A stretch of 64,000 nt of DNA. Source: an uncultured Bdellovibrionales bacterium (GTDB lineage Bacteria; Bdellovibrionota; Bdellovibrionia; Bdellovibrionales; UBA1609). Shown here one piece after another: positions 1-38,709 of this stretch. The stretch spans positions 9,709 to 73,708 of the forward strand of contig CALLBC010000007.1 in assembly GCA_938001965.1 (NCBI GenBank), written 5' to 3'. Below the pieces are notes generated by a model. That model saw only the letters and a list, made by a program, of their open reading frames with translations, made no database searches and was not told where the DNA came from. Positions within the stretch are counted from its first letter, which is position 1, and every line of letters starts with the position of its first letter. Both the position numbers and the translations under genes were made by a program.

Positions 1-602
1 TACATGGATAGAGGACTAACTATTTTTTCGTTTAAATTTAACTCTTTGTTTATACTTCCATAGCGCTTTAAAACTAAGTCCTTAATATAAGGACCATCTA
101 AATTAAACTCTCTGATTTCCTGCATAGTGCCTGGTGACTTATTAAAGGCATTTATAAACCCTTTATATACAAACTCACTACAGTAAATTTTATCGTCAGA
201 CCACTCAAAGTATATATCATAGTTTAAACCCAAATATTTTTTTAAACTCTCTTTTAATAAATTTTGATTTCGCAAATCACTCAAATCAACAAAGTTTTTC
301 TTAACACGTTTTATAGTTACTCTTTCTTCCTTTCCATTTTTAATGAATCGCTTAATAGGGGTTATTTTTACAGGCTGCACAGCCTCATAAACATTCCATT
401 TGCCAGCCTCTTTAAACAATACTCCCACATGAGTAATATGAGACCCAGAACCTTCCTGCAAAGCCTCAGACTGACTACTTAAACTAGATTGAAATATTAA
501 ATCACCACTCTGAGCATGCTGATTAAGATACCTTTCAAAAGAAGAGCCCCAAGCGTTATTAACTATGGTAAAAACTAAAAGTGAAAATAAAAATTTTAAC
601 AT
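1..602 (-). CDS. YiiX/YaeF-family permuted papain-like (peptidase C92-type) secreted enzyme; 3' end lies outside the window
   Basis: Absent from the ORF track because it runs off the left edge. My minus-strand translation from ATG (602-600) is open to base 1. It reads MLKFLFSLLVFTIVNNAWG (signal peptide) ...GDLIFQSS...GSHITHVGVLF...DDKIYCSEFVYKGF. His-then-Cys motif order (HVG ... YCSEFV) is typical of this family. GGAG lies 7 nt upstream (613-610). Confidence 0.75.
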   Translation of the reverse strand, partial: MLKFLFSLLVFTIVNNAWGSSFERYLNQHAQSGDLIFQSSLSSQSEALQEGSGSHITHVGVLFKEAGKWNVYEAVQPVKITPIKRFIKNGKEERVTIKRVKKNFVDLSDLRNQNLLKESLKKYLGLNYDIYFEWSDDKIYCSEFVYKGFINAFNKSPGTMQEIREFNLDGPYIKDLVLKRYGSINKELNLNEKIVSPLSM

Positions 603-720
603 CACAAATCTCCTAATATTAAAAATAATCTGTACATAAATGATAATTCTAATCATAAAAATTACAAACACTAAAAATATAAGCTGATTGAAGAATGGAA
701 TAATTAGTTAACTGTACGCG

Positions 721-1020
721 CCAAGCCTCTAGCTTTACATCTGATTTTGAAGTGGAGTTTATTTACTCCACGCGCAGTTCCGTTAACTCGCGACTTCACG
801 AAGTGGAGTTGCGCCATTAATAGCTGCTTGAATGGGATAACTGACTATATGTTACTCGCTACACACACCAAACCTCTAGCTTTACGCTTGAGTTTGAAAT
901 AGAGTTTATTTACTCCACGCGCAGTTCCGTTAGCGCGTGACTTCACGAAGTGGAGTTCCGCGATTAACGGCTGTCTGAGCATGGAGTGAATAAACTCCAC
1001 TTCAAAATCAGATGTAAAGC
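721..1020. repeat. Composite structured intergenic repeat: two ~115-bp direct copies (721-835, 868-985; period 147 bp) plus a terminal 38-bp inverted copy (983-1020 vs 731-768)
   Basis: Read directly. The two units share CCTCTAGCTTTAC..GAGTTTATTTACTCCACGCGCAGTTCCGTTA..GACTTCACGAAGTGGAGTT at about 85% identity. 983-1020 is the reverse complement of 731-768 with 1 mismatch. The region is visibly GC-richer than its flanks. Each unit contains GAAGTGGAGTT / ACTCCAC / GAAGTGGAGTT, which allows alternative hairpins. Confidence 0.85.
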
Positions 1021-1027
1021 GGGCCCT

Positions 1028-1414
1028 CTATTCGTTGGCTCCCGAAATTATATCTTCTAACTGCTGCTCGGAAATATTTTCTGGTTTATTTTTTGGATTT
1101 AGATCATAGCGGATTTTATGCACCCAGCGACGCCCCACAAATGCGTTAATTTTTCTTTTTAACTCAAGCTCAATAAATTGTAAGTTCTGCATATGCACTG
1201 GGTGAGCGACCCATAAAGTCAGTAAACCCTGATCATACTGTATGGGAGAGGAGTATTGGCTAATTTGAGGACCCACAAGTTCTGCCCATTGGTTCCAAAC
1301 CTTCCACCTTGTAAACTGTTGAGATAAGGGCGATTTTTGAAAAAAACTTTTCAATACCTCTGAGCTTGTTTCTAACTGCGCCTTTTTCTTGCGCAACTTC
1401 TTTTTGTCTGACAT
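1028..1414 (-). CDS. DUF721 (DciA-like) protein
   Basis: 128-aa ORF. The pattern W..VWNQWAELVGPQI...P..YDQGLLTLWVAHPVHMQNLQF.ELELKRKIN matches the DUF721 pattern (W..ivG..i..h..p..l.dg.L.v.v.s..w..eL) as I recall it. Confidence 0.6.
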   Translation of the reverse strand: MSDKKKLRKKKAQLETSSEVLKSFFQKSPLSQQFTRWKVWNQWAELVGPQISQYSSPIQYDQGLLTLWVAHPVHMQNLQFIELELKRKINAFVGRRWVHKIRYDLNPKNKPENISEQQLEDIISGANE

Positions 1415-2768: not shown

Positions 2769-4874
2769 ATGAAAAAATTTATTTATATTTTAATTTTTTT
2801 AACTCTTGGCGGATGCATGAACATCAAAAAAGGAACGAGTAGTACCAACTTAGATAATCTTTTATGGCTTGAAAAAGTTGAAGGAGATAAGGCTATTAAT
2901 TGGGTTAAAGCCCAAAATAAAGTTACGGACCATAAAAATAAAATATCAAAAAATTATAATACTCTAAAAAAGCAGGCTCTAGAAATTTTAGAAGATAAAA
3001 ATAAAATTCCTTACATGAGCATGAGGGGAAACTATGTTTATAATTTTTGGCAAGATAAAAACCATGCAAAAGGTATATGGAGAAGAACTACGCTTAATAG
3101 TTATAAATCAAAAAATCCAAGATGGACTACACTTATTGATGTCGATCTTCTGGCAAAAAAAGAAAATGAAAATTGGGTATTTAAAGAGACCGATTGTTTT
3201 ATAGATGACTATGATAAGTGTTTAATACATTTATCTCGCGGAGGAAAAGACGCAACTGTCATTAGAGAGTTTAACCTCAAAACCAAAAAATTTGTTACAA
3301 ATGGATTTCAACTCCCAGAAGCTAAATCATGGGTCAGTTGGAGAGATAAAGACTCTTTATATGTTGGAACTGATTTTGGCAAAGATACCATGACTAAAAG
3401 TGGGTATCCAAAAATTGTAAAAATTTGGAATAGAAATACTTCATTATCATCAGCTAAAGAGGTTTTTTCTGGCATAAATGACGACATGGGTGTCTATGGC
3501 TACTTCATGAAAGATGGCGACCAATACTTTCACACTATCACTCAATATAAAAATTTCTATGCTTCAAAAAAGTGGAGTATTTCCAAAGATGGATTAAAGT
3601 TAATTCCGCTGCAAGACAGTGCTAAAATTGAAGGGCTGTTTAATGGCTTCCTTATAGTTTCACTAAAGAAAGATTGGACAATTGAAGACACTACTTTTAA
3701 ATCAGGCTCCGCCTTAGCTGTAAAAAGAAAAATCGTTGATAGTGGAAAAGTGACTACAGATGATATTTTAATTTTAAAGGAACCTTCTGCAAAAGAGTCT
3801 ATTCAGTCTATTCGTAAATCAAGAAATAAGTTAATTATTAGTACAATTGATAATGTTCGTGGAAAAATTTATCAAATTGATTATAAGAATAAATTATTTA
3901 CTCAACCAAAATTATTAAATATAAACTCTAGTGGCGATATCAGGCTTTCTGCAACAGACGACAGCACTAATCTAATTACTTTTTATGACGAAGGCTTTTT
4001 ACAACCCAGATCACTAAACTTATATAACCTTGACGCCAATAAGGTTACGCCACTTAAATCTTTAAAAGCAAAGTTTAATATTAATGGAATGACTGTAGAG
4101 CAGCGATGGGCAACCAGTAAAGACGGAACAAAAATTCCTTACTTTATTGTTGGTAAAAAAGAGGTCCTTGCAAAAGGAAATGCCCCCACTGAACTTTATG
4201 GCTATGGTGGATTTAATATCTCTAGTAAGCCGTATTACAATGATGTGCTTGGAAAGCTATGGCTTGAAAAAAATGGCGTTTATGTTTTAGCTAACATTAG
4301 AGGTGGTGGAGAGTTTGGTCCTAGCTGGCATCAATCCGCAATATTAAAAAATAAACATAAATCTTACGAGGATTTTATTTCTGTTGCTGAGCATTTAATT
4401 TCCACAGGTGTAACTAGTAATAGCAGGCTTGCTATCAGTGGAGGAAGCAATGGAGGCCTTTTAGTAGGAGCAGTGATGGTAAAACGACCAGACTTATTTA
4501 ATTCAGTTATATGCCAAGTTCCACTGCTTGATATGTTGAGGTATCATAAACTATTAGCAGGAGCGAGCTGGATGGCTGAATACGGCGACCCAGATAAACC
4601 TGATATGCGTGAATATATTTTAACTTACTCGCCATACCAAAATGTGAAAAAGAATGTTAAATACCCAAATGTGCTTTTTATGACTTCTACAAAAGATGAT
4701 CGTGTCCACCCTGGACATGCTAGAAAAATGGCTGCTCGAATGATGGAACAAGGACACCAAGGAATTAGTTACTATGAAAATACAGAAGGCGGTCATTCAG
4801 CCAGCTCTGACTTAAAACAAAGAGCAAAAATGAAAGCAATAAAATATAACTTCTTACTTGAAAACCTTAAGTAA
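2769..4874 (+). CDS. Prolyl oligopeptidase family (S9A) lipoprotein
   Basis: 701 aa. Lipobox LTLGGC at the N-terminus. Catalytic serine motif GGSNGGLLVGA, downstream DDRV and GGH motifs of the Ser-Asp-His triad. N-terminal beta-propeller-length region. Confidence 0.85.
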   Translation: MKKFIYILIFLTLGGCMNIKKGTSSTNLDNLLWLEKVEGDKAINWVKAQNKVTDHKNKISKNYNTLKKQALEILEDKNKIPYMSMRGNYVYNFWQDKNHAKGIWRRTTLNSYKSKNPRWTTLIDVDLLAKKENENWVFKETDCFIDDYDKCLIHLSRGGKDATVIREFNLKTKKFVTNGFQLPEAKSWVSWRDKDSLYVGTDFGKDTMTKSGYPKIVKIWNRNTSLSSAKEVFSGINDDMGVYGYFMKDGDQYFHTITQYKNFYASKKWSISKDGLKLIPLQDSAKIEGLFNGFLIVSLKKDWTIEDTTFKSGSALAVKRKIVDSGKVTTDDILILKEPSAKESIQSIRKSRNKLIISTIDNVRGKIYQIDYKNKLFTQPKLLNINSSGDIRLSATDDSTNLITFYDEGFLQPRSLNLYNLDANKVTPLKSLKAKFNINGMTVEQRWATSKDGTKIPYFIVGKKEVLAKGNAPTELYGYGGFNISSKPYYNDVLGKLWLEKNGVYVLANIRGGGEFGPSWHQSAILKNKHKSYEDFISVAEHLISTGVTSNSRLAISGGSNGGLLVGAVMVKRPDLFNSVICQVPLLDMLRYHKLLAGASWMAEYGDPDKPDMREYILTYSPYQNVKKNVKYPNVLFMTSTKDDRVHPGHARKMAARMMEQGHQGISYYENTEGGHSASSDLKQRAKMKAIKYNFLLENLK

Positions 4875-4909: not shown

Positions 4910-6739
4910 TTATTCAACCGTTACTGACTTGGCTAAGTTTCTTGGCTGATCTACATCATGACCCAATGCACTTGCTACATGTAATGATAGCAGCTGCAAC
5001 GGAATAACCGCTAAAAATGGATTAATATTCCATGGAACCTCAGGAATAGATAAGAAGTTAATACTTAAATTTTTTAGTCTCTCATCATTCACAGTACCAA
5101 TGGAAATGACTTGAGCTCCCCTGGCTTTTGCAGTTTCTAGGTTACTAATTGCTTTATCGTACAAATCATCTTTTGGTGCTATCATAACAACAGCCATTTG
5201 TTCATCAATTAGTGCAAGCGGGCCATGCTTCATTTCCCCAGCTGCGTAACCTTCTGCGTGCATATAGGCTAACTCTTTAAGTTTTAAAGCGCCTTCTAAA
5301 GCTATTGGAAAGTTAACTCCTCTTCCAAGGTACAAAAAGCCTTTATAATCTTTTAATCTTTCAGCAGCTTCAGCAAAGAATTTGTCATAAGTTAAAACTG
5401 ACTCCATATGGCTTGGAGTCGCTAGTAATGACTTTACCAAAGCCCTTTCTTCTTCAGGCTTCATATTACCGTTCACTTTAGCAATATACCCTGCAAGTAA
5501 ATTTAAAATTGATAATGAACAAATAAATGCTTTTGTACTGGCAACACCAATTTCTACCCCAGCATTCATATATAGCTGAATATCTGATTCACGATCCATG
5601 CTTGAGTGCTGAACATTACAAAGGGATAAAGTACGAACCCCTTGCTCTTTAGCCAAACGCAAAGCCGCCAGAGTATCCGCTGTTTCCCCACTTTGAGAAA
5701 TTACTATTAATAATGAGTTTTTAACTAGCTTAGGACTTCTGTACCTAAATTCACTGGCAATATCTACCTTACAAGACACACCAGACATTTTTTCAAGTAA
5801 GTACTCACCGACCATGCCTGAGTAAAAGCTTGTCCCGCAAGACACTATATATATTTGCTCTAATGATTTAATATCAGATACGTAACTCTCTAAAGCAGGC
5901 ATCTCAATACTTTGTGTTTCAATATTAATATAAGGCTCTAATGACTTAGCCATACTTCTTGGCTGCTCAAATATTTCTTTTAACATATAGTAAGGATAAC
6001 CTGACTTTTCAACTTGCTCGGCAGACCAACTAATTTCCTCTATTTTTTTATCTATAGGCTTTAGATCATTAGAATAAAATTTATAACTATCTTTCTGAAT
6101 ATGTACTACTTCATTTTCCGACAAGTAGGCGATGTTTTTAGTGTATGGAACAATAGCTAACATATCACTTGCAACAATAAATGATTTTTCAGCAAAACCC
6201 ACTAATAATGGGGGGCCGTTAGTAAAAGCCACCATTTCATCAGGGTGCCTTTCAGATAAAACTAAAACTGCATAAGCCCCCTGTAATCTTGGAATAACTT
6301 CTTTAACAGCAGTTAACAAATCATTAGTTTGCTTTACTTTAATATTGATTAAGTGGGCTATTAGCTCTGTGTCAGTGTCTGAATAAATTTCTGAACCACC
6401 AGCGATCAATTCATCACGTAGCTCTGCATAGTTTTCAATAATTCCATTATGCACCACACTCACTCCACCAATCATATGAGGATGAGCGTTTTTTTCAGTG
6501 GCAGGACCGTGTGTCGCCCAGCGCGTATGACCAATTCCTAAATTACCTCTAATAGGTTCTTCATTAAGCTTTTTTTCTAGGTTAACTAGTTTTCCACGGG
6601 CTCTAGATCTATTTATAAATTCACCATTATGAATAGCAACTCCTGCGCTATCATAACCTCTATACTCTAGAGTTTTTAATCCCTTAACAATTACTTCTTG
6701 AGCGTCTTCTCTGCCCAAGCATCCAACAATTCCACACAT
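4910..6739 (-). CDS. glmS: Glutamine--fructose-6-phosphate aminotransferase (isomerising)
   Basis: 609 aa. Starts MCGIVG (N-terminal nucleophile Cys), has two SIS-domain regions and ends ...NLAKSVTVE, the canonical GlmS C-terminus. Confidence 0.95.
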   Translation of the reverse strand: MCGIVGCLGREDAQEVIVKGLKTLEYRGYDSAGVAIHNGEFINRSRARGKLVNLEKKLNEEPIRGNLGIGHTRWATHGPATEKNAHPHMIGGVSVVHNGIIENYAELRDELIAGGSEIYSDTDTELIAHLINIKVKQTNDLLTAVKEVIPRLQGAYAVLVLSERHPDEMVAFTNGPPLLVGFAEKSFIVASDMLAIVPYTKNIAYLSENEVVHIQKDSYKFYSNDLKPIDKKIEEISWSAEQVEKSGYPYYMLKEIFEQPRSMAKSLEPYINIETQSIEMPALESYVSDIKSLEQIYIVSCGTSFYSGMVGEYLLEKMSGVSCKVDIASEFRYRSPKLVKNSLLIVISQSGETADTLAALRLAKEQGVRTLSLCNVQHSSMDRESDIQLYMNAGVEIGVASTKAFICSLSILNLLAGYIAKVNGNMKPEEERALVKSLLATPSHMESVLTYDKFFAEAAERLKDYKGFLYLGRGVNFPIALEGALKLKELAYMHAEGYAAGEMKHGPLALIDEQMAVVMIAPKDDLYDKAISNLETAKARGAQVISIGTVNDERLKNLSINFLSIPEVPWNINPFLAVIPLQLLSLHVASALGHDVDQPRNLAKSVTVE

Positions 6740-9472: not shown

Positions 9473-11032
9473 CTAATTAAAACCTAATATTTTTTTAGAC
9501 TCTTCCGAAGTCACAAGGTTAATTGCTTCTATCTTAATATTACCCTTTATCATCCCCTGAGCTTCCATTATAGAAAAATATATGTCACTAGCATGTGAAC
9601 TAGTTATGACTTTAAAGTCTCCTAATTGCCCCACTTCTTTTGCTAACCGATAATGAAAATAATTTTTTAATTCATTTTCAAATGATAATAACTGCTGCTG
9701 CTCAGAACTTGACTCCACAAGTACTGAATAAAATGGCTTACTATCATCATTAAAGTTACAGGCAAGTAAACTTATAATTGTATATTCAGATGACTGATCA
9801 TTAAATTTTCGAATCAGCTCTGCTATAGAATTTTGCTCAAGTTTTTCACCAACTAAATCCATATGTCCAGCCCGACCCTGAAAAGTTAAACAAGGCACAT
9901 TATTCCACATTTTATCCACCAAGAGTACATCTTTAATTAAGTATCTCAAGAAGCCTGAGCCAGTGCTTAAAATTGGCATGACCCTCATCCCGGCCTTTAA
10001 TTTCCAACTTGGTATGACTTCATCATTTTCAAGATTCTTAAACTCATAAAAGTGTGATCGATACGCTAAAAGGAAATTACCTTCAAAAGGAATAGTTACA
10101 ACAGCCTCTGTAGACCAAAGCCCTTTACCTTGAAATTGTGTATTTGGAAAAATATTTTTTAATTGTTCAAATGAATTTATCGCTAAGCCCGTATCCCAAC
10201 AACTAATCAAACTTAACTTAGGCCATAGCTCTGACCATATTTTTGCCTGATTTTCTTTTGTCAATTTTTGCAATATCTTTGCTGCTTTAATATTTTTAGG
10301 AGCTTTTAGGTTTTTACTATTAACTGGACTATCCTGCCAGCTACCTGTTTCTAATACATTAATTATTTCACTTTTATAATTAAAAATATTATCTACAATT
10401 GATATAAGAAAACTAGGACTCCAAACTGATATTAAAGATAAGTTTTTATCCGAGACCAAAAATGTTGCTGTTGCAAAAAATGAAAGCTCTGAACTTTCTA
10501 GCAGGGCAACACCTTTTGGAACACTAAATATTTTATTGATTATAAGTTTTTTCCAAAATGAAAACAGTTCACCATCATCTACCATACCCATAACTTTTCT
10601 ATCTTTCGTTGGGATCCAAGACAGTGACCAATAGTGTGAACCCTTCATGACTTGAGGGAAGTTTAAGAATAAGTTATACATCCAGGCTGAAGCTGCTTTA
10701 TCAAATTCATCTAAAAGTTCTGGCGTATAAGGTATCCATTTCTGTTTACCACTTGAACCACTTGTGGGCTGATACCTGTTAACATTTTTACAAACTAATG
10801 GCTCACCAAATTCTTTTTGTCGATCAATTTTATTTCGCCAGTCATCATATGTTGTTACTTTATAAGATTGAGTAAAACTCTCATATTCCATAGATTCCTT
10901 ACCTAATGCTCGTAGTAAATTATGTAACTGTTTTTTTTGCACTTCCTCGAGGTTATGTAAATTAGTATTGAATTTTTTATAGCTCCTATAATTCAATAAC
11001 TTGTATATATTATTTAAAAGCCAATAAATCAT
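9473..11032 (-). CDS. GH3-family acyl-acid amido synthetase (adenylate-forming)
   Basis: 519 aa. ANL/GH3 phosphate-binding motif QPTSGSSGKQKWIPYT. Length and overall layout match bacterial 'GH3 auxin-responsive promoter' family proteins. The start overlaps the upstream stop (TAATG at 11030-11034). Confidence 0.75.
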   Translation of the reverse strand: MIYWLLNNIYKLLNYRSYKKFNTNLHNLEEVQKKQLHNLLRALGKESMEYESFTQSYKVTTYDDWRNKIDRQKEFGEPLVCKNVNRYQPTSGSSGKQKWIPYTPELLDEFDKAASAWMYNLFLNFPQVMKGSHYWSLSWIPTKDRKVMGMVDDGELFSFWKKLIINKIFSVPKGVALLESSELSFFATATFLVSDKNLSLISVWSPSFLISIVDNIFNYKSEIINVLETGSWQDSPVNSKNLKAPKNIKAAKILQKLTKENQAKIWSELWPKLSLISCWDTGLAINSFEQLKNIFPNTQFQGKGLWSTEAVVTIPFEGNFLLAYRSHFYEFKNLENDEVIPSWKLKAGMRVMPILSTGSGFLRYLIKDVLLVDKMWNNVPCLTFQGRAGHMDLVGEKLEQNSIAELIRKFNDQSSEYTIISLLACNFNDDSKPFYSVLVESSSEQQQLLSFENELKNYFHYRLAKEVGQLGDFKVITSSHASDIYFSIMEAQGMIKGNIKIEAINLVTSEESKKILGFN

Positions 11033-12306
11033 TAACTACTAGCTCCCAGCGAAAGATCACGCTTAAAATATTCTATAAACTTATTTACAATTTCCTCAGA
11101 ATATTCAGGCTTACAATAAGTTAATGTTATTTGGAGGCTGTTACTATATTCAATAACAACAGCACCAAACCCTGGGCTTTTAAAAACAGCAGACATTAAA
11201 GAAATATTTTTTGTTTTTAATTGCGGTGGCAATATGGCATCATCTACCTTCAGGTAAGAAACCATCATTGATGAGTTAAAACTTTTAATTTTACTAGTCT
11301 TTGCTTCAAACATTCGCTTAAGTGTTTTCAGGCTAAAAATCGAGTTCAAACCAAATAGTATTTTTTGAGAATACTCAAGGAACTCTTTATTAATTGTAGA
11401 TCTTAAAGCTTTATTTAAAAACTTAATGGATGTTTTATCTTCAAAACTAGATGCTGGGACTTCTAGCCTAGTTAGTGTTACTAAATTTCCTATATATAAC
11501 TTTAACTTAAAAATAGGTCTTAAATTAATGGGCATAGCTAGCACTATGTTTTTATTACAACTAGGCTTAGTGCTTCTCAGCGACTTGCACATTGAATTCA
11601 CTATATATGCAAATAACGTACACTTATTAATCTTAGCTTCAGCTTTTAATTTACAATAATCTTCTTTTATGATTTCAATATTTACTGTGCCGTATTCTTG
11701 CCTAGACTCATTACTCATATCACCAATATTTAAGCAATCATATTTTCTAGAAAAGGACTTGAGTAAATATTTAAACTTTTTATTAAACAGTAATTTAAAC
11801 ACACACCATTTACTTAAAGTGTATTCAGCAAGTGATGGTCTTAAATATTTAATATTAGAAGGCTCATTATTTAAATATATATATAGTAATTCTTTAAGTA
11901 AAAATGCTTGGGAGATGCCATCCACCAACGTATGATGAATATAAAAATATAATTTTGAGCTCTTAGGCATATTTACTAAAATAAATTTAAAAGCCGGTTT
12001 TTTTGATAATTCAAATTTATCAATAAAGGTAGTCTTAACTTCTCTTTCCGAATTATAAACCTCAAATACTTCACTAAGCTTGACAGAATTTAAACTCATG
12101 CGCTGAACTTTCTTTTGTGAAACAATTTTTGATTTTAAAAAAGGGAACCTCTCAATAAGTTTTAAAATACTCTCGCCGAACTTAGACTCATTAATTTTAG
12201 CTTGAAACTCTAAACTCAACCCGCAATTAAAGGCAAAGGAAGAGGATTCATGAGCGTAAATTATTTTTTCAATAGGATTAAAATTTACGTCAAAGGCGTT
12301 ATTCAT
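11032..12306 (-). CDS. Free-standing condensation-domain superfamily acyltransferase (HHxxxDG)
   Basis: 424 aa. Catalytic motif HHTLVDGIS sits at about residue 125, the position expected for NRPS C / PapA5 / WS-DGAT-type enzymes. No adjacent A or T domain. TAATG overlap with the P450 stop (12304-12308). Confidence 0.7.
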   Translation of the reverse strand: MNNAFDVNFNPIEKIIYAHESSSFAFNCGLSLEFQAKINESKFGESILKLIERFPFLKSKIVSQKKVQRMSLNSVKLSEVFEVYNSEREVKTTFIDKFELSKKPAFKFILVNMPKSSKLYFYIHHTLVDGISQAFLLKELLYIYLNNEPSNIKYLRPSLAEYTLSKWCVFKLLFNKKFKYLLKSFSRKYDCLNIGDMSNESRQEYGTVNIEIIKEDYCKLKAEAKINKCTLFAYIVNSMCKSLRSTKPSCNKNIVLAMPINLRPIFKLKLYIGNLVTLTRLEVPASSFEDKTSIKFLNKALRSTINKEFLEYSQKILFGLNSIFSLKTLKRMFEAKTSKIKSFNSSMMVSYLKVDDAILPPQLKTKNISLMSAVFKSPGFGAVVIEYSNSLQITLTYCKPEYSEEIVNKFIEYFKRDLSLGASS

Positions 12307-13601
12307 TATTCTTCCCTAGCAGAGAAATTGACGTAGTATTTTTCTTTAGGAGCTAAAGTAATACCAGCTTTAACACTTACCTCCTTGTTTTCCACAGGAG
12401 TAATATCAATTTTTTTAAATAACTCTTTTAGAATTATAGCTAATTCTAAATTCGCCATTCCCTTGCCAATACAGGTATTTTTGCCTCCACCAAATGGTAT
12501 AAAAGCAAATCGATTGATATTTTTATCTAAAAAACGGTTCGGCTTGAATACAGCAGGCTCTGTCCAAAACTCTTTATTTCTTTGGACAAGATAAATACTA
12601 GCCCACACAGTTGTACCTTTTGGCACGAAGTAATCACCCACTTGAGTATCTTTAGCACATAATCTTGAACGAAACCATGCTGGAGGGTAAAGTCTCATAG
12701 ACTCTTTAATAACATTATTAATACTTTTATAATTTGATAAATCTTTTAGTGTTTTAATTATCAAATTTGAATTAGAGGCTTCCTTGTAAATTTCATTTTT
12801 AATATTTTCATTTCTAGAAAGTAAATAAAGAGACCAAAACAAACAGTTTGCTGTAGTTTCAAAAGAAGCTACAAAAAATGTGAGTGCTTCATTTACTAGC
12901 TCCTCAGGAGTTGCCAAAGGATCCTTTTCCATAAAAGACATAAAGCTGGTTTTGTTTTGTTTTTTTGACTCAACAATAATTTCATTAATGTGATCAAATA
13001 ATTGTTTTTTTATTTTATGAAATTTTTTATGACTCTTTAAGGGCAACCATAGAGGCCACTTTATTAGTTGAGCCGGCCTTGAACGCACAAAATCTATCAT
13101 CTCATCAACTAGCGGAGACAAGTCAGGGAGTAGTTTTATCTCGTCCATACCGTAAATAACTTTAATTACCAGTGAGTACATTATTTTCACACTAAAAGCG
13201 TGCAAATCAACTTTACCGCTATAGTCTTTCAACTGCTTAACTATTATTTTTTCCATATCTGGAATTAAGCTATTAATATTGTCTCTAGTGAAGTAAGTTT
13301 GAGCGTACTTTCTTTGACGCTTCCATGTTTCTCCTTCAGAGGTAAGAACTGTCTCCCCTAGAACAATGCGTGGCCCCCTTTCTTTAACCATAACTTCATC
13401 ATTAAGTGTAAATAAACTTTTTATTTCCCTTGGTTCTGAAAAAATGAATATTGACTTAGGCCCAGCTTTTACACGAAATGTATTGCCATACTTATTTTGA
13501 CATTCAGTTATAAAGTTTAATGGAGCATTTAAAAACTCTTTTGCAGAGCCAAACAAGAGGCTATTAGATGGAACTAATGGTGGTAGTTTTTTATTATTCA
13601 T
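12306..13601 (-). CDS. Cytochrome P450
   Basis: 431 aa. Heme-thiolate loop FIPFGGGKNTCIGKGMA, I-helix FFVASFETTAN, K-helix ESMRLYPP (ExxR). Confidence 0.9.
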   Translation of the reverse strand: MNNKKLPPLVPSNSLLFGSAKEFLNAPLNFITECQNKYGNTFRVKAGPKSIFIFSEPREIKSLFTLNDEVMVKERGPRIVLGETVLTSEGETWKRQRKYAQTYFTRDNINSLIPDMEKIIVKQLKDYSGKVDLHAFSVKIMYSLVIKVIYGMDEIKLLPDLSPLVDEMIDFVRSRPAQLIKWPLWLPLKSHKKFHKIKKQLFDHINEIIVESKKQNKTSFMSFMEKDPLATPEELVNEALTFFVASFETTANCLFWSLYLLSRNENIKNEIYKEASNSNLIIKTLKDLSNYKSINNVIKESMRLYPPAWFRSRLCAKDTQVGDYFVPKGTTVWASIYLVQRNKEFWTEPAVFKPNRFLDKNINRFAFIPFGGGKNTCIGKGMANLELAIILKELFKKIDITPVENKEVSVKAGITLAPKEKYYVNFSAREE

Positions 13602-14518
13602 TCAGTGTACACCTTATAGCCAGGCATTGAATGAACCTTTTTAACCCACTTCAACCAATGCTCTTTACTGCCAATATTATAACTATCTTCATTAATTTTG
13701 TGCAAATGATAATGTGAGATATACGGAAGTATATGATGTAAATTATGTTTGTCAAAATTAAGTAATACATGACGGCCAATAAATTTTGCTAATATTAGAT
13801 CTTTTGTTACACGCTTATGGTCCCACACAGCTAAAGGAAATTCCTTTTTGTCAATTTTGTTACAATCCAATAAGTTATGTTGACTGATAATAAGAAAGTC
13901 TGAAGTAAATAAATACAAAAAAAATGGTAATAAAAACAACTTAAAATATATTGATTCTAAAAAGATTAATAGCAACAAATGACTACTTACCAAAAATACA
14001 AAAGATAAACTGATTGTTGGCTTTTTATTTTTATTGATCTTAGGTTTCACCGTTTTTAATAACACTACTAAAAAACTAAATATTGGAATATGTAACTTCC
14101 AACAAAAATTTAATATTTTAATATTCATTGAGCTTATCTGATCAGACCTTGGAAAATTTAAGGAAGGATCTCTATCTCTATCTCCCACCCATATATGATG
14201 ATCTAAATGACTTTGTTTCCAATCCTGAAATGAAAGAAGGCTCAATACAGAGCATAAATGCCCAACTAAAAGGTTCAATTTTTTATTTTTAAAAAATGTA
14301 TCATGAGCACAAGAGTGTAAGGTGCTGAACTGTCTCCAGACACATACAAAGATCAATAACTGGCCCACAAACCATGTGATTAAACTTTCACTATGGCTTA
14401 AATAAAGACCTAAACCAATAAGCATTAACTCTAGGAATAATTGCCTAATCGCATTTAAATTATTAATTTTTAAATTCCTGGTCTCTTGCTTTAATTTTAA
14501 ATATTGCTTTTTATCCAA
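13598..14518 (-). CDS. Membrane fatty-acid desaturase/hydroxylase family protein (three His boxes)
   Basis: 306 aa. His boxes HSCAHD, HLDHH and HNLHH are separated by hydrophobic helices. Probable TTG start 3 nt after the Rieske stop, with GGAG upstream. ATGA overlap with the P450 start (13598-13601). Confidence 0.8.
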   Translation of the reverse strand: MDKKQYLKLKQETRNLKINNLNAIRQLFLELMLIGLGLYLSHSESLITWFVGQLLIFVCVWRQFSTLHSCAHDTFFKNKKLNLLVGHLCSVLSLLSFQDWKQSHLDHHIWVGDRDRDPSLNFPRSDQISSMNIKILNFCWKLHIPIFSFLVVLLKTVKPKINKNKKPTISLSFVFLVSSHLLLLIFLESIYFKLFLLPFFLYLFTSDFLIISQHNLLDCNKIDKKEFPLAVWDHKRVTKDLILAKFIGRHVLLNFDKHNLHHILPYISHYHLHKINEDSYNIGSKEHWLKWVKKVHSMPGYKVYTE

Positions 14519-14521
14519 ATC

Positions 14522-15538
14522 TTAGAGCTCCATAAAGAATCTAAATTCTTTCCCTTCGTATTTTTCACGAGATAAAGACAAACTATGCTCATATAGCCTT
14601 ATCACTTCACTTATAGCTTTATCAGTTACAAAGAATACAGAAGCTGGATAATTATATTCTTCCAATTGCTGGGCTTGATTTTCAAGTATAACAATATCTT
14701 GATCTAGTATTTTTTTCGTATATTGTTTTAATATTAACTTCAAAAGTGGACCACCAAAGCCTCCCTTAAAACTTATAAATGTATGTACTTTAGATAATAA
14801 TTTAGAAATTGGCGTAATTACTGAGACAGTTGTTACCTCCAAAGATCCAATTGTATAAATAACCTTAACGTTATACGGTGCTATATACTCATCAATATGG
14901 GTTATAGGTTTGTTTTTTGGGTTTAAAAATTTATTTAAAGCTGATTCACTAGAGTTTTCACCAATGGTCTCTATTTTCACTGAACTCTCATCGCTTTTAA
15001 CTAATACTTCAACTTTTTTATGAGATTTTCCACGAAAAAGACCCTTATGAACGACTCCTGTATGCGCAGTATCAATAAAATTTTCTATAATAGTTAATGC
15101 TGGAGCTTTAATTTCATACTTAAAAGTCAGATTATTTTTACTTTGCTCATCATATAAAAAATAGTTTGGAGTATCATGATCATTATTTGATAAATTAACC
15201 CAAATATAATCATATTTATCGATGTGATGCTTATAAGACTTAACTTTTCTTCTAGGTAAGCGATCTCCCTCTGGAACAGAAGGCACCTTAACACATGCTC
15301 CAGAAATATCAAAACTAGCACCATGGTATGGACAAACTAAGCAGTCATTCTTAACCCAACCTTGAGACAGGCTCACATGGCGATGGATGCACTTATCTTG
15401 TAATATTGATATTTTATTCGCTTTATTTTTAAATATAACAAGCTTAGTGTCTGCAATGGTCAGTCCAACTGGTTTATTTTTAATTTCTCTAGCTGCACAG
15501 ACTAACATCCAGCCAGAGTCTTTATTAACAGAGTACAT
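14522..15538 (-). CDS. Rieske [2Fe-2S] non-heme iron oxygenase (PaO/KshA-like alpha subunit type)
   Basis: 338 aa. Rieske motif CIHRH...CPYHG. Mononuclear iron motif ENFIDTAHTGVVH (D-x2-H-x4-H). Confidence 0.85.
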   Translation of the reverse strand: MYSVNKDSGWMLVCAAREIKNKPVGLTIADTKLVIFKNKANKISILQDKCIHRHVSLSQGWVKNDCLVCPYHGASFDISGACVKVPSVPEGDRLPRRKVKSYKHHIDKYDYIWVNLSNNDHDTPNYFLYDEQSKNNLTFKYEIKAPALTIIENFIDTAHTGVVHKGLFRGKSHKKVEVLVKSDESSVKIETIGENSSESALNKFLNPKNKPITHIDEYIAPYNVKVIYTIGSLEVTTVSVITPISKLLSKVHTFISFKGGFGGPLLKLILKQYTKKILDQDIVILENQAQQLEEYNYPASVFFVTDKAISEVIRLYEHSLSLSREKYEGKEFRFFMEL

Positions 15539-15557
15539 ATATTTCCAATTAAGTTAT

Positions 15558-16337
15558 TTAAGCTCTCTTAGAAAATAATACCTTTAATTTTGTCTTTCTA
15601 GTAACATTTTTTATGATCCTTCTAAAAATCAAGTCCAAAGTGAACTCACCAATACAAACTAGCTCATCACCACTTCTCCAATTAGGATTTTTTTCTTGAA
15701 AAAACGCAATTTTTTTATTCTTCTTTAAAAGGCCTTCAGTAATTTCACATAAGCCTGCTTTTAAACAGTCTTTTTCAGCACTGGAATCAGTTGGAAACTC
15801 AATACACCCTGTAGATCTATTATAATTACTAGAATATAAGTACTCTCCACAGCTATCAATAATATTTTTAATCTCAGCAGGTGTATTTTTGAAAGGGTGC
15901 GGATAATAATTAACAAAGTTATTCGCTAATAATAAATAAGTTTTATAACCTTTTGAAATCAAATTCCAATAAATCTTCGTAAAAGGACTTTTCAACTTCT
16001 GCTTAAGTAAGTATTTTGAAAATTCAGACCCTAAATTATTATTACCCCAATATCTCTTATCTACAATAGTGTCACCACTAAATATAAATTTAGCTTTAAA
16101 TTGAGCTAAGGAAAATACTTTAGCTGTGCTGAAACCAACGATTTCGTCTGTTAAAATATCAATTATTAAAAAAACAAAAGATTTATCATTTAAGTCTGTT
16201 ATGAACTGATTGTAATTCACATTAGAATAGTATGACTGAAAAAGTCCCCACATATCAGCTATATGTGACTCACTGAGTTTAGATATGGGCACAGTTGTAT
16301 TTCTTGTTTTCATTGAAATTATTCCATAAATTGTCAT
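15558..16337 (-). CDS. Hypothetical protein, first gene of the operon; possibly a GNAT-fold acyltransferase
   Basis: 259 aa, no signal peptide. The functional guess rests only on a loose GNAT-like pattern (..IVGFSTAKV...FIFSGDTIVDKRYWGNN..G). No catalytic motif recognised with confidence. Confidence 0.4.
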   Translation of the reverse strand: MTIYGIISMKTRNTTVPISKLSESHIADMWGLFQSYYSNVNYNQFITDLNDKSFVFLIIDILTDEIVGFSTAKVFSLAQFKAKFIFSGDTIVDKRYWGNNNLGSEFSKYLLKQKLKSPFTKIYWNLISKGYKTYLLLANNFVNYYPHPFKNTPAEIKNIIDSCGEYLYSSNYNRSTGCIEFPTDSSAEKDCLKAGLCEITEGLLKKNKKIAFFQEKNPNWRSGDELVCIGEFTLDLIFRRIIKNVTRKTKLKVLFSKRA

Positions 16338-26595: not shown

Positions 26596-26747
26596 AGAGT
26601 TAAGTACCAGGGGCGCCTATAGGCTGAGATGGTTTTAACCAGTCCCTTTGAACCTGATCTGGTTAATACCAGCGTAGGAAGAGTGCAAAACAATAGGGAT
26701 CCCTCCCTAATGTCGCCCTACTCCTATGATTTTATATAGGAGCTTAT
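26596..26747 (+). promoter_or_regulatory. TPP (THI-box) riboswitch with SD-sequestering expression platform
   Basis: Aptamer core read directly: CCAGGGGCGCC..GGCTGAGA..ACCAGTCCCTTTGAACCTGATCTGGTTAATACCAGCGTAGGAA (26607-26680). Downstream, CTCCTAT (26721-26727) can pair with ATAGGAG (26736-26742), covering the AGGAG Shine-Dalgarno of thiM (ATG 26748). Confidence 0.9.
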
Positions 26748-27566
26748 ATGAAACAAGTTAATACCGATACTTTATGGAGCCACCTCAACAGCATTAGAGA
26801 ACAAGGCCCTCTAGTTCATAATATTACAAACTCTGTTGTTACCAATTTTACAGCCAATGCTTTATTAGCCACAGGTGCATCACCCTTAATGGCTCACGCC
26901 CCAGAGGAGCTCGAAGAGATTGTTTCAATCTCCGATTGTCTTGTGATTAATATTGGAACTTTAGATGCTAAACAAATACTATCCATGGAAAAGGCTATTC
27001 AATTTGCCAATCAAAAAAATAATCCTATCATCATTGATCCCGTTGGTGCTGGAGCGAGCAAGTTGCGCACAGAAACTGCCATTAAGTTAATTCAACAATC
27101 TAATAACTGCATCATTAAAGGTAATGGAAGCGAGATCATGTCACTGGCTTCATTAGCCATGACCCCCTCTAAAGGGGTCGATAGCACTGCTACTTCTAAT
27201 GAAGCTTTAACTGCTGCACAAAATTTAATTCATGAAAATAATAATATTAAAGTCATCATAATTACTGGTGAAACTGATTATGTAATTTCAAATTCACAAT
27301 CATCAAGTCACAGCAATGGCCACTGTATTATGAGTAAAGTTACTGGCATGGGTTGTTCTCTCGCCGCAATTACAGGAGCTTTTTGCTCTAACACCAATGA
27401 TTACTTCAAAGCCTCACAAAATGCAGTCAACTTTGTGGGCCTATGTGGAGAGCTTGCCAATGAAAAATCCAATGGACCAGGCTCTTTTACTATTAGCTTT
27501 TTTGACCAATTACATAATTTAACAGACCAAGAGATTAATAATAATTTAAGGTTTAATAAATGTTAG
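26748..27566 (+). CDS. thiM: Hydroxyethylthiazole kinase
   Basis: 272 aa. VHNITNSVVTNFTANALLATGASPLMA and ITGETD..., GMGC motifs. Confidence 0.92.
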   Translation: MKQVNTDTLWSHLNSIREQGPLVHNITNSVVTNFTANALLATGASPLMAHAPEELEEIVSISDCLVINIGTLDAKQILSMEKAIQFANQKNNPIIIDPVGAGASKLRTETAIKLIQQSNNCIIKGNGSEIMSLASLAMTPSKGVDSTATSNEALTAAQNLIHENNNIKVIIITGETDYVISNSQSSSHSNGHCIMSKVTGMGCSLAAITGAFCSNTNDYFKASQNAVNFVGLCGELANEKSNGPGSFTISFFDQLHNLTDQEINNNLRFNKC

Positions 27567-28207
27567 ATCCTTTTAGATTTCAATTGGTCACAGACAGCCA
27601 CTTGATGGCTCACCTTGGGGTGGAGAGCATTGTATTATCCGCCGTAAAAGCGGGAGTTAACCTTATTCAATTAAGAGAAAAAAATAATTCAACCAGGGAA
27701 TTCATAACTCTTGCTAAAAAAATAAAATTGTTATTAGCACCACACCAAATTCCCTTAGTTATAAATGATCGTGTTGATGTAGCTTTAGCCAGTAATGCCC
27801 ATGGCGTACACTTGGGGCAAACAGATATGACTTACACAGATGCAAGGAAATTACTGGGCCCCAGAGCCATTATTGGAATAACTCTAGAAAACAAATCACA
27901 GTTACAAAAAACAAAAGGTGAAAACATCAGCTACTTTGGAATTAGTTCTATTTATCCAACTAATACTAAAAATGATGTTTCAAACATATGGAATAACAGA
28001 GACATCATGGAGGTCAAAGAACAATCTACTAAACCCCTTATTGGAATTGGTGGAATTAACACTAATAATGTTAGAGATACTTTAAAAAAAGGGTTAGATG
28101 GCATTGCCGTCGTATCAGCAATTTGTAGCTCTAAATCATTAGAACAAGTGCAGAACAACACAGAGCAATTATTTAATGCTTTAAGAGAGAGTAATGGAAT
28201 CCACTGA
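27560..28207 (+). CDS. thiE: Thiamine-phosphate synthase
   Basis: 215 aa. LIQLREK, INDRVDVALA..A.GVHLGQ.D and GGI motifs. Overlaps thiM by 7 nt. Confidence 0.9.
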   Translation: MLDPFRFQLVTDSHLMAHLGVESIVLSAVKAGVNLIQLREKNNSTREFITLAKKIKLLLAPHQIPLVINDRVDVALASNAHGVHLGQTDMTYTDARKLLGPRAIIGITLENKSQLQKTKGENISYFGISSIYPTNTKNDVSNIWNNRDIMEVKEQSTKPLIGIGGINTNNVRDTLKKGLDGIAVVSAICSSKSLEQVQNNTEQLFNALRESNGIH

Positions 28208-29999
28208 ATTTAACTTCATTAACTCCATTAAAAGTAAGTTTTCTAATCAATATAGGGAAAACTCTATTGGTATTGGCGATGACTGCAGTGTCATCCCATT
28301 AAATGAAACTACATATCAACTAACCACAACCGACTTACTTGTTGAAAACATACACTTTATACGGAGTAAAAGTACTGGCTTTCAATTAGGTTACAAATCT
28401 TTAATGGTAAATTTAAGCGATATTGCCGCTATGGGTGGATATCCAAGCCAAGTGTACCTTTCCTTAGCAATACCAAAAAATTTGAATGAAAAATTTTTAG
28501 ATGAATTTATAAATGGATTTCATAACGGCTGCAAAGAATATGACTTACCTCTTTTGGGTGGAGACACAACGAGCTCAAAAAAAGAACTAACAATCAGTAT
28601 AACTGTACAAGGCACTGTAGATAAAAGTAACTTAAAGTTGAGGTCTGGTGCAAAAAGTGGCGATCTTATATGTGTCACATCAAACCTTGGTGATTCCGCA
28701 ATGGGACTAGAAGTAATTATAAATAATTTAAAAACAACTAATAACAAATTTTTCTTAGACAAGCACAACTTACCTAAAGCGCACATTAAAGAGGGAAATT
28801 TATTAGCAAGCCTCAATGGGGTAAATGCAATGATGGATATATCTGATGGTGTATCCTCAGATATTAAGCATATCTGCAATCTATCAAATTTGGGAGCCAA
28901 CATTCACCTTGACCAACTCCCTCTATCAGAGGACTACAAGCGCACCTGTAAACTGCATAATTTTGACTTATATGAAAAGGCCCTCAGTGGAGGAGAAGAC
29001 TACAATCTTATTTTCACCACCAATAAAAATGATTATCCTCTAATTGAAAATTCTTTTTTTAGTAAATTTAAGTCTCCAATCACTATAATTGGTCAAATGA
29101 CTTCTAATTCAAAAATTACTTACTTCGAAAACAACAAACCCACTGCCAAAGTATACTTGGGCTTTGACCATTTTAAGGAAGCACCCTCCCAAGAACTAAA
29201 AAAATATGAATGTGTCATGAGTATTGCAGGCTCTGACTCTGGTGGTGGAGCTGGAATACAAGCTGATCTTAAAACTATTTCTGCTTTGGGTGGGTACCCC
29301 ACTACCGCCATCACTTGTATTACAGCGCAAAACACAGTTGGAGTACAAAGTGTTCACCCTTTACCTATAGACATAATTACCAATCAGATATCAAGTATTA
29401 TCTCTGACATAAATACTAATACTATTAAAATTGGGCTACTTGCCAACAATAAAATCATTAAAGCAGTTTCTGATCTATTAGGAAAACTAAATAAAAATAA
29501 TTCTTATAAAATTATACTAGACCCCGTCATGATCGCAACTAGTGGAGATTTGCTATTAGAGGAAATAGCAATTAATACTATGATTCAAAATTTATTACCA
29601 CTCACTTATTTAGTTACACCAAATATTCATGAGGCTGAAACTTTAACAAAATTAAAAATCACATCTGAAGACGACGTAAAAAAATCTTGTCTTATGCTCC
29701 ATGAAATGGGAGCGAAAAATGTTTTAATTAAAGGTGGGCATATTAATAGTAATTTAGCTACAGACATACTTTTTATTAGTAATACAAAATCTTTTCATAA
29801 GTTCACAACAAATAAAATAATAACAAAAAATACTCACGGCACAGGCTGCACATTTTCAGCAGCCATAGCCACATTTTTAGCTAAAGGACTACCACTTAAA
29901 GACAGCGTAAAGCTCTCTAAAAATTTTATTCAAAATGCAATTTACGAAGGATCAAAATATCAACTGGGCAAGGGAGCAGGGCCTCTTAAACTCAATTAA
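28194..29999 (+). CDS. thiL-thiD: Fusion protein: thiamine-monophosphate kinase (ThiL, N-terminal ~325 aa) + hydroxymethylpyrimidine/phosphomethylpyrimidine kinase (ThiD, C-terminal ~270 aa)
   Basis: 601 aa, single uninterrupted ORF. The N-terminal half has ThiL motifs: [60 protein letters not shown]. From about residue 333 come ThiD motifs: [35 protein letters not shown], ...[11 protein letters not shown]. Confidence 0.9.
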
Positions 30000-30004
30000 A
30001 ATAA

Positions 30005-32605
<2,601 letters not shown>

Positions 32606-36711: not shown

Positions 36712-37557
36712 ATGGGTTTGCGAATTAATACCAATGTAGCTTCTCTGAATGCTCAGAAGAATTTATTTGGTACTAAACTTAGACTTGATAAGAGTTTGGA
36801 GCGCTTGGGAACAGGCCTTCGAATTAATCATGCAGCAGATGACGCTGCAGGGTTAGCTATATCAGAAAATCTAAGAGCAACTATACGAGGTGAAAAACAA
36901 GCTCGTAGAAATGCTCAAGATGGGATATCGTTCGTTCAAGTTGCAGAAGGTGCACTTAACGAAGTTAGTAATATACTAATTAGACTTCGTGAGTTAGGTG
37001 TTCAAGCTGCCTCTGATACTATCGGACCTGTTGAAAGACAGTTCTTGAATACTGAGTATGATCAGTTAATTCAAGAAATCGATCGTATCGCAGACGGAAC
37101 TGAGTATAATGGATCTCAGTTACTTAGTGGAACAGGAACCGTTTTAGACTTCCAAGTGGGAGTTCATAACGATCCTATGATTGATCGTATCTCTTTTGAT
37201 GCTTCAAAAGCAGATGCAAATTCAGCCGCATTAGGTGTAAACCTAACAAGCGTATCTGATAAAGTTTCAGCACAGAATAGTTTGGCTGCAGTTGATGCTG
37301 CCTTGATTAGCGTAAATGCTATGAGAGCAGATTTCGGTGCAATCCAAAGTAGAATGATGTCTACAATACAGAACTTATCTGTATCAATAGAAAATCAGTC
37401 TGCTGCTTTTTCTAGAATCAGAGATGTGGATGTTGCTGAAGAAACCGCTGAATTAACAAAACAAAATGTGTTAATGCAAGCTGGTACTTCTGTACTTGCT
37501 CAGGCGAATCAATCACAACAACTTGCACTAGGACTCTTGAACAAAACCTTAGGGTAG
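36712..37557 (+). CDS. fliC: Flagellin (short type, no hypervariable D2/D3 insert)
   Basis: 281 aa. N-terminus MGLRINTNVASLNAQ, DDAAGLAISE. C-terminus ...LAQANQSQQLALGLL. GGAGG RBS. Confidence 0.95.
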   Translation: MGLRINTNVASLNAQKNLFGTKLRLDKSLERLGTGLRINHAADDAAGLAISENLRATIRGEKQARRNAQDGISFVQVAEGALNEVSNILIRLRELGVQAASDTIGPVERQFLNTEYDQLIQEIDRIADGTEYNGSQLLSGTGTVLDFQVGVHNDPMIDRISFDASKADANSAALGVNLTSVSDKVSAQNSLAAVDAALISVNAMRADFGAIQSRMMSTIQNLSVSIENQSAAFSRIRDVDVAEETAELTKQNVLMQAGTSVLAQANQSQQLALGLLNKTLG

Positions 37558-38676: not shown

Positions 38677-38709
38677 ACTACAAATTCACCTTAATACTTT
38701 AAATCACCA

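Follow-up and report, generated by a model that had tools for sequence, protein, structure and literature searches.

What kind of element is the self-complementary repeat that lies between dciA and a YiiX-like gene in the 64,000-nucleotide stretch of DNA analysed here (64 kb, hereafter the window)? The preliminary description of this locus presented it as a composite architecture, a 147-bp tandem duplication of about 85% identity closed by a 38-bp inverted repeat and arranged as mutually exclusive hairpins, and named a MITE/REP-like repeat and a cis-regulatory leader or terminator among the candidates. The flanking genes were defined as follows.

1028-1414, minus strand: dciA (DUF721, PF05258), with its stop codon at 1028-1030, 7 nt from the element.
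1-602, minus strand: YiiX-like (Peptidase_C92) gene, truncated by the window start, with its start codon at 602.

Between the start of the YiiX-like gene and position 721 there are 118 nt, and the distal 3' arm of the element ends (at 732) 129 nt from that start; the spacings given earlier (7 bp from the DUF721 stop and about 120 bp to the YiiX-like gene) were thus correct. The AT-rich spacer between the element and the YiiX-like gene holds a promoter-like site (667-640, minus strand). The genes of the window are ordinary chromosomal ones (glmS/glmU, purD, thyA/folA, valS, flagellins and recQ) and include a thiamine operon behind a TPP riboswitch and a gene for an RNase II/R-family protein. 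GC skew declines monotonically across the window, and a replication origin or DnaA site next to dciA was rejected on this ground and on the best DnaA-box-like strings, which matched at 6/9 positions.

The repeat search aligned 716-831 with 863-978 (period 147, 84% identity over 116 nt), and blastn against the window gave 88% identity over 100 nt (E 1e-24), values that bracket the earlier estimate. The similarity extends at lower identity into 685-715 and 832-862, so that there are two full 147-bp units. The inverted repeat was recovered by blastn as 732-770 against 982-1020 (38/39 complementary, E 2e-14), in line with the 38 bp first reported, and its arms could be extended to 46 nt at 93% (732-777 and 975-1020), whereas the proximal copy at 879-924 was just 80% complementary to the 5' arm. 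The string GAAGTGGAGTT occurs at 749-759, 800-810 and 947-957 on the plus strand and at 993-1003 on the minus strand and nowhere else in the window; its upstream copy in unit 2 is degenerate (GAAATAGAGTT). The element had been called far GC-richer than its surroundings. It is indeed richer (44.7%, where the window as a whole has 34.6% and the adjoining spacer 21%), but many coding stretches of the window reach 39-48%. The fold of 700-1030 (331 nt) was far more stable than those of shuffled sequences (z -11.2 and -12.5 for the two strands). By sequence alone, blastn of the element against the 64-kb window detected no further copy.

The element was resolved into the parts listed below. Scores refer to R1, a covariance model built on the window copy and its ortholog in contig L005, and to R2, a model trained on AT-rich copies only.

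879-1020, minus strand: H2, a complete family hairpin of 142 nt (MFE -72.3 kcal/mol, z -11.7; R2 143.5 bits).
979-1020, minus strand: 5' arm with the 5' strand of helix I; its complementarity is 97% with 732-770 and 80% with 879-924.
971-978, minus strand: conserved 5' loop motif UCAGACAG, which occurs once in the window.
942-952, minus strand: apical tip of unit B, CACUUCGUGAA, which recurs unchanged in unit A (795-805) and in the L005 ortholog.
921-926, minus strand: conserved 3' loop motif of unit B (AACUGC); unit A has the duplicate at 774-779.
879-916, minus strand: proximal 3' arm (B), which differs from arm A by six substitutions; at three of these a G.U pair with the 5' arm is kept.
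732-864, minus strand: H1, a partial tandem duplicate (R1 42.6 bits, R2 38.2 bits).
685-978, no strand assigned: the two 147-bp tandem units (832-978 and 685-831), from the repeat search, blastn and the junction alignment.
1025-1030, minus strand: TAGAGG (the dciA stop codon plus AGG), present again directly after the 3' arms at 873-878 and 726-731.

In H2 the 5' arm and helix I lead to an asymmetric internal loop and an apical domain of 44 nt, after which helix I' and the proximal 3' arm complete the hairpin. It has the core on a long lower stem that defines the family, with all core positions present, and the core model R3, of 61 positions with 20 pairs, matched it at 907-992 with 65.2 bits in the sense direction compared with 17 in the antisense direction. 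Its UCAGACAG is preceded by helix I, which bears the U of a U.G pair that is invariant in the family. H1, on the other hand, has a 5' part derived from the junction, then the apical tip, the 3' loop motif and helix I', and last the distal 3' arm (732-769), with neither a 5' arm nor a UCAGACAG of its own; the flank CUAGAGGYUUGG is also repeated in it, beyond the 3' arm.

For the junction analysis three segments were aligned, namely the 5' core, the inter-unit junction and the sequence past the second unit. The left side of the junction matches the downstream flank and the right side matches the core, the switch occurring at CAGC, a microhomology of 4 nt that the core (GACAGCCGUUAAU) shares with the downstream flank (AAUCAGCUUAUAU) and that marks the crossover. 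The tandem duplication copied the 3' two-thirds of the hairpin together with 47 nt of flank. The locus is a single ancestral hairpin plus a 147-bp microhomology duplication, with one 5' arm and two 3' arms, and the composite architecture proposed at first dissolves into these two components. The 5' arm can pair with either 3' arm, and the impression of a duplication closed by an inverted repeat arises because the sole 5' arm pairs with the distal copy of the 3' arm, which is still 37/38 complementary to it. The proximal unit retains an intact apical helix, whereas that of the distal unit has degraded. The 147-bp duplication is most likely a neutral accident. Contigs assembled from short reads are interrupted at both of its ends.

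In the dciA-locus copy ACUCCAC can pair either upstream (-11.2 kcal/mol) or downstream (-15.0 kcal/mol), because GGAGU is present in the outer arm and again in helix I. These alternatives, together with the position of the element upstream of a gene on the same strand, would suit a cis-regulatory leader (riboswitch or attenuator) that controls the YiiX-like gene through mutually exclusive hairpins. We consider this very improbable. The GGAGU/ACUCC redundancy is missing from the ortholog in L005 and from all paralogs described below, so that the alternative helices, and with them the mutually exclusive layout of the preliminary description, belong to the window copy only and do not form a conserved attenuator or riboswitch platform. 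Moreover, one long hairpin is strongly preferred: the long-range pairing reached -135.6 kcal/mol over 726-1030 and -140.7 kcal/mol over 700-1030, compared with about -112 kcal/mol for the compact hairpin plus the rest of the region, and is thus thermodynamically favoured. The ribosome-binding site and start codon of the YiiX-like gene are at least 118 nt away, past the AT-rich spacer and its promoter-like site, and the other members of the family adjoin unrelated genes (flagellin, archease/rtcB and a gene for a 193-aa protein). The notion of a leader or terminator was further weakened by a scan of 400-1600 on both strands, in which no terminator-like site was found; no T run (U-tract) follows the hairpin stems at the dciA and flagellin loci.

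The search for a known identity agreed with the earlier statement that the element resembles none of the common structured RNAs. The Rfam search of the whole window at the gathering threshold gave no family match, a search of four regions against Rfam 15 at E<=10 returned generic miRNA-precursor models only (18-28 bits against thresholds of 90-200), and no tRNA or tmRNA was detected. There were no blastn matches in the plasmid and phage collections, and no member of the family turned up in the viral collections. The pattern CACTTCGTGAA..AACTGCGCGTGG, which is too specific to the ortholog pair, had 0 matches in genome, metagenome and viral collections, and literature searches yielded nothing relevant. 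A parS-like reading of the apical ACTTCGTGAAGT was rejected, as this sequence is 2 nt short of the 16-bp palindrome and absent from short-form members.

DciA has four close homologs in the protein collection, and the DNA downstream of each was inspected. In a sister species (L005/L006, short ENA contigs; 91% DciA identity) a related hairpin is present at the matching place and overlaps the stop codon. No hairpin of this kind follows dciA in L003/L004 (81%), L002 (76%), L007 (62%) or L010 (61% DciA identity), and in L002 an ordinary terminator-like hairpin stands in the place of the element. Between the dciA genes of the window and L005, 14/35 four-fold degenerate sites are identical, which means that neutral sites are near saturation, and identity at third codon positions is 58%. 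The two hairpins nevertheless have in common three perfect blocks of 12, 11 and 13 nt (CAUGCUCAGACA, CACUUCGUGAA and AACUGCGCGUGGA). The rod-like fold is retained in L005, the apical part is expanded in both orthologs, to 44-45 nt, and 7/33 predicted pairs are changed on both sides. Because the core blocks and the pairing persist against near-saturated neutral divergence, the hairpin appears to carry the signature of purifying selection on the pairing and on particular unpaired nucleotides. A conserved small ORF (MLRQP...) was rejected as the source of this conservation: the 3' block is read in different frames among members, a 1-nt indel separates the second and third blocks by a frame shift, and the ORF has no start codon and an early stop at the flagellin-locus copy.

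The empty sites in close relatives (L003, L002 and L010) would also be expected of a selfish DNA palindrome of the MITE/REP type. According to this explanation, which we regard as a serious alternative but less probable than the one preferred below, copies would insert between genes, the core would be recognised as a hairpin by an enzyme acting in trans from another locus, such as a transposase, an HUH nuclease or a recombinase, and the arms would be built from the flanks or homogenised against them. Variable gene content beside the element is in its favour, as is TAGAGG, which flanks the element on both sides at the dciA locus (with a left-hand offset of 4 nt) and may be a target-site duplication of 6 bp: the element-free relative L003 has a single TAGAGGCT at the dciA stop, which resembles the right flank in the window and would represent the empty site. 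However, the orthologs retain the core and the tip at saturated divergence, which a decaying non-autonomous copy would not, and the Pfam search of the 64 kb revealed no transposase, RAYT (Y1 transposase, PF01797) or integrase among the approximately 52 ORFs of the window. The lack of matches in the phage, plasmid and viral collections likewise speaks against a selfish element.

Further copies became apparent when structure was searched together with sequence. R1 matched two more loci of the same genome, 38702-38814 of the window (plus strand, 59 bits) and L008:2573-2675 (42 bits), L008 being a Logan contig of the same organism that runs past the window start.

38706-38810, plus strand: paralogous hairpin with its core at 38730-38786 (R1 59.3, R2 108.2 and R3 61 bits).

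This hairpin (MFE -51.3, z -13; the L008 hairpin has z -7.3) is located about 33 nt past the second flagellin gene (37843-38676), and a convergent S41 peptidase gene (38842-40407) has its stop about 35 nt away. It is the sole hairpin between the two convergent genes, and its arms have A/T runs. The L008 copy is located between divergent genes, outside any 3' UTR. The inner motif reads CUCGUAC UCAAACAG CUACCC UUC GGGUAG AACUCC GUGCGAG in one paralog and CUCGUGC UCAGACAG CCACCC UCC GGGCGG AACUGC ACGCGAG in the other, and both share this motif and a short GC-rich apical hairpin. Their lower stems are near-perfect but unrelated to one another and to that of the dciA copy: pairwise comparison of paralog arms gave similarities at the level of shuffles (z -0.5 to 2.1), whereas scores above that level came from H2 and its ortholog in L005 (z 5.1) and from H2 and its duplicate H1 (z 9.3). 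Searches with R2 and R3 found no further copy in the window or in 228 kb of relatives' loci, and the known density is three loci per about 71 kb of one genome.

Dispersal over three strictly intergenic loci in about 71 kb would fit the selfish palindrome. At the same time, the dissimilar arms of the paralogs mean that there are no shared terminal inverted repeats, and inspection of the flanks at 38706-38810, L008, L040 and L051 (the last two described below) showed no convincing target-site repeat. The copies are also old and diverged, with no recent burst. Thus, of the MITE/REP-like repeat suggested in the preliminary description, a structured intergenic repeat with further copies stands, but the terminal repeats common to such elements are absent. 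Arms that are perfect and yet locus-unique could result from palindrome regeneration at the DNA level rather than from selection on RNA.

Members were also found outside the Bdellovibrionota. A core pattern, GCTCAGACAGCC ... GGAACTGCRCG, taken from the two most typical cores and searched as an exact match, had seven matches in JGI metagenomes, six of which were chance occurrences in GC-rich coding DNA without a hairpin. The seventh, L040 (67% GC), is a 96-nt hairpin (-85 kcal/mol) between an archease gene and rtcB; its stem is fully paired save for three single-base gaps, and its layout is that of the other members, with CCGUGC/GCGCGG bearing the U.G pair at the equivalent position. A looser pattern had 16 matches in viral contigs, all of them due to chance, with 0-2 contiguous flanking pairs, so that none of the 22 chance matches (6 metagenomic and 16 viral) is surrounded by a comparable hairpin. 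The RtcB homologs of L040 pointed to Candidatus Eisenbacteria and led independently to L051 and L042, which have the same core. In L051/L052/L054 (83% RtcB identity, three independent assemblies) the hairpin is oriented as in L040. In L042-L044 (87%) the core is inverted while the arms keep their orientation, being 17/21 identical to those of L040 on the same strand. L045/L046 (82%) have an inverted copy that has decayed, and in L047-L050 (77%) the hairpin is absent and the spacer length unchanged. R2, in spite of its AT-rich training set, detected L042 at 43 bits. Comparison of the sequences thus shows that the hairpin family spans at least two phyla, the Bdellovibrionota and an Eisenbacteria-like lineage. 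The occurrence in two distant phyla is consistent with horizontal spread, and this, together with the presence of the core in both orientations at one locus, adds to the case for a selfish palindrome.

Alternatively, the hairpins could be devoid of function, that is, neutral by-products of palindrome-generating replication errors (template switching) in which the core is coincidental or hitch-hiking. The 147-bp duplication plainly arose by mutational accident at a microhomology of 4 nt, the copy in L045 is in decay and that in L047 has been lost, and unrelated palindromes exist at 55806-55987 of the window and, as another palindrome family, in L009. This explanation is improbable, however, given that a 15+8-nt core is common to organisms of 35% and 67% GC in hairpins alike in size and layout, that chance matches to the pattern never came with a helix, and that core and tip were conserved against saturated neutral divergence.

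With these additions the family has eight known members, all of them intergenic hairpins of 95-142 nt in which a locus-specific, near-perfect lower stem of 17-36 bp underlies a conserved core of about 45 nt. The core starts with helix I, in which the invariant U.G is the third pair; above it lie a U/C mismatch, a CAG/CUG helix of 3 bp, a 4x2 loop (ACAG/AA) and, at the apex, a GC-rich stem-loop; in linear order it reads helix I, U-CAG-ACAG, apical hairpin, AA-CUG-C. We curated an alignment of seven members that takes in 20 bp of stem, the two loops and the basal part of the apical helix. In this alignment 89.3% of the cells are in standard pairs and 22/28 pairs are altered on both sides, and the covariation among homologs that had been proposed as a check is thus present in the ortholog and the family members. 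None of 500 shuffles reached these values, and when the partners were slid by 1-3 columns only 33-50% remained paired. At the level of sequence, this covariation proves that self-complementarity has been maintained. The unpaired positions are conserved as well: the 5' loop motif UCARACA occurs in 7/7 members, UCA-ACA and AACU-C are invariant, and the U.G, as the third pair from the loop, is present without exception (7/7), which is a further point against the absence of function. A kink-turn was rejected for the ACAG/AA loop, its key G being variable (G, U or C).

The core itself is strongly strand-specific (R3 gave 61-78 bits for the sense direction and 17 for the antisense). Outside the invariant U.G, however, there are 7 G.U wobbles on the sense strand compared with 11 A.C (G.U on the other strand), and sense and antisense strands fold about equally well. 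Because the wobbles are symmetric and both strands fold alike, the covariation does not assign the selected RNA strand. The symmetry of the wobble counts would accord with a selfish palindrome. It would also accord with a site that acts as DNA, double-stranded or as a cruciform, for example an invertible core switch or a recombination or protein-binding site, for which the direction of transcription would be irrelevant. The opposite cores of L040/L051 and L042/L045 on un-flipped arms and the occurrence of copies on both strands within one replichore point in this direction. Even so, we consider a DNA-level site unlikely, as the asymmetric loop and the U.G pair exist only in a folded single strand, no recombinase gene is nearby, the segment between the arms is merely about 50 bp long, and the flip could be a rare event of recombination between the arms instead of a switch.

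The function that we prefer, with less than even confidence, is that of a transcribed stem-loop in 3' UTRs or between cistrons whose loop binds a factor. The hairpin starts 0-33 nt past a stop codon at five loci (dciA in the window, L005, flagellin, L040 and L051), and it is this position, together with the apparently selected unpaired nucleotides and the strand-asymmetric core, that suggests such a role. Transcription from upstream (dciA, the flagellin gene at 38.7 kb, or the archease-rtcB spacer) would produce the hairpin as the 3' end of the mRNA, and the very stable stem-loop would end the transcript, protect it or be processed out of it, the stem blocking or directing ribonucleases or terminating transcription. 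A widely conserved factor, for example a double-strand- or loop-specific ribonuclease or an RNA-binding protein, could then dock at the invariant internal loop and the U.G pair. A function in the sense RNA is made awkward by L042 and L045, because their cores are inverted relative to the archease-rtcB transcript. The missing U-tract, the position of the L008 copy between divergent genes and the small number of members, eight, also count against a transcribed 3' stem-loop.

We tentatively propose that the family represents an undescribed class, in which a strand-asymmetric core of about 45 nt (UCAGACAG / AACUGC, with the invariant U.G) is read by a conserved cellular factor, is carried on fast-evolving self-complementary arms and can be flipped; it may be a new RNA motif or a DNA switch or mobile unit. 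A constant loop on rebuilt stems, in genomes that range from a 35%-GC predator-type organism to a 67%-GC lineage, points to a conserved loop reader, a protein or an enzyme that could be accessible by pull-down or genetics. If the motif acts as RNA, it would serve mRNA 3'-end or intercistronic control. The flip of the core within fixed arms provides a natural test of RNA versus DNA action, and the core can serve as a compact model with which to search for a motif that Rfam lacks. For annotation the lesson is that a striking 'composite repeat' can be an element plus an accidental duplication, with no regulatory switch.

The family resembles several known systems in part. Bidirectional intrinsic terminators are comparable to the flagellin-locus copy with its convergent genes and A/T-run arms, but the family has no U-tract, has a conserved internal loop and is also found between co-directional and divergent genes. 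Integron attC sites likewise conserve structure over sequence, form strand-asymmetric hairpins with extrahelical bases and a variable terminal structure, and are of comparable size (57-141 nt). They differ in that R''/R' boxes (RYYYAAC / GTTRRRY) lie at the hairpin base and that they flank gene cassettes next to an integrase. In the family, an additional 17-36 bp of stem lie below the conserved loop, there is no intI or cassette array, and CC, CT or GC, not the RRRY of attC, comes after the antisense GCAGTT. Correia elements of Neisseria and other MITEs are intergenic hairpins of 100-150 nt that can be co-transcribed and are substrates of double-strand-specific RNases; the family is like them in its possible target duplication, at one locus only. 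MITEs, however, carry conserved terminal inverted repeats and target-site duplications at every copy, whereas the termini of the family are not conserved, and instead of near-identical copies its three loci in about 71 kb cannot be aligned outside the core.

The REP/BIME and ERIC (IRU) sequences of enterobacteria are, like the family, intergenic imperfect palindromes often found past stops or between cistrons. They are transcribed, occur in many copies and in either orientation, and are thought to stabilise the upstream mRNA or to be processed by RNases. REP sequences are 20-40 nt long, with a conserved GTAG head and a link to RAYT, whereas the members of the family measure 95-142 nt and have no conserved GTAG at the foot. 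ERIC copies have the whole 127-bp sequence in common, whereas the family has only the 45-nt apical core in common, with locus-unique arms and a cross-phylum distribution. Bacterial intergenic palindromes (REP, ERIC, Correia, MITEs) are normally lineage-specific, with the whole sequence conserved between copies. Intergenic hairpin repeats are thus well known, and what is new here is a predicted internal-loop core that crosses phyla on locus-unique, near-perfect arms.

The region downstream of dciA was compared between the window (1-1027) and two relatives that lack the element at this locus (L002, 10381-14194, and L010, 3656-4610, with 76% and 61% DciA identity, respectively), and gene content was found to vary among them. 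The YiiX-like gene and the 288-aa gene are missing from both L010 and L002, whereas the subsequent TPR gene, the sigma-54 activator and the flgB/flgC block are common to the compared loci. This variable segment has the element at its edge.

The Logan short-read contigs of the same organism break off at either edge of the element (window 720-1020), one ending there (L001, 4501-4537) and the other starting there (L008, 1-30), as is expected where an internal repeat exceeds the k-mer length. L008 shows three mismatches to the window within its first 25 nt (TAAAGTTAGTTAATT versus TACAGTTAACTAATT), which reflect either a strain variant or an error at the contig tip.

Family hairpins were also observed beside other genes. 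In the window, one follows a flagellin gene:
36712-38810, two tandem flagellin genes with 3' hairpins
Downstream of the first gene lies a short hairpin of the ordinary kind, with a T run (37689-37729); downstream of the second lies the family hairpin (38706-38810).

In Eisenbacteria-like contigs, copies of the conserved core were detected in the archease-rtcB spacer:
L040, 313-408
L051, 1699-1764
L042, 9891-9988
L045, 560-640
Two lineages carry the core in the sense orientation and two others carry it inverted, while the surrounding arms keep their orientation. This inversion could be an evolutionary flip via recombination between the arms, or it could represent a switch. In L047, which carries an RtcB relative without the hairpin, the length of the spacer (9896-10003) is unchanged, and it contains two tandem copies of a 12-nt repeat, GACGGTCCCGCG.

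The window also carries a riboswitch, a further gene run and two AT-rich inverted repeats:
26599-26698, plus strand, TPP riboswitch (RF00059, 80.8 bits)
9473-16337, minus strand, genes for a GH3-family adenylating enzyme, a condensation domain protein, a cytochrome P450, a fatty-acid desaturase and a Rieske oxygenase
55806-55987, nearly perfect AT-rich palindrome of 180 nt (89-nt arms, 4-nt loop, -79.6 kcal/mol)
47352-47471, weak inverted repeat, AT-rich (39-nt arms, 77%)
The riboswitch lies immediately upstream of a thiamine operon (26748-31726) encoding hydroxyethylthiazole kinase, TMP synthase, a fused AIR-synthase-like/HMP-P kinase and ThiC. The gene run possibly represents a small lipid or secondary-metabolite cluster. 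The palindrome lies between an ORF (55842-56939) and, on the minus strand, an MFS transporter gene (54544-55758); it was ruled out as a family member, matching neither of the family's covariance models R2 and R3. The weaker repeat, upstream of an ORF (47501-48238), gives a poor fold (-16 kcal/mol) and is probably of no significance.

A palindromic repeat of about 75 nt, AGGTACCAAGTTACTTTTCGGGCCAC...GTGGCCCGAAAAGTAACTTGGTACCT, was found in a contig from a different organism (L009, Logan SRR25180566):
3905-3975, first copy
5446-5528, second copy
6298-6384, third copy
The copies are highly similar and occupy three consecutive intergenic regions. This is the classic REP/MITE-like pattern, from which the hairpin family of the dciA locus differs.
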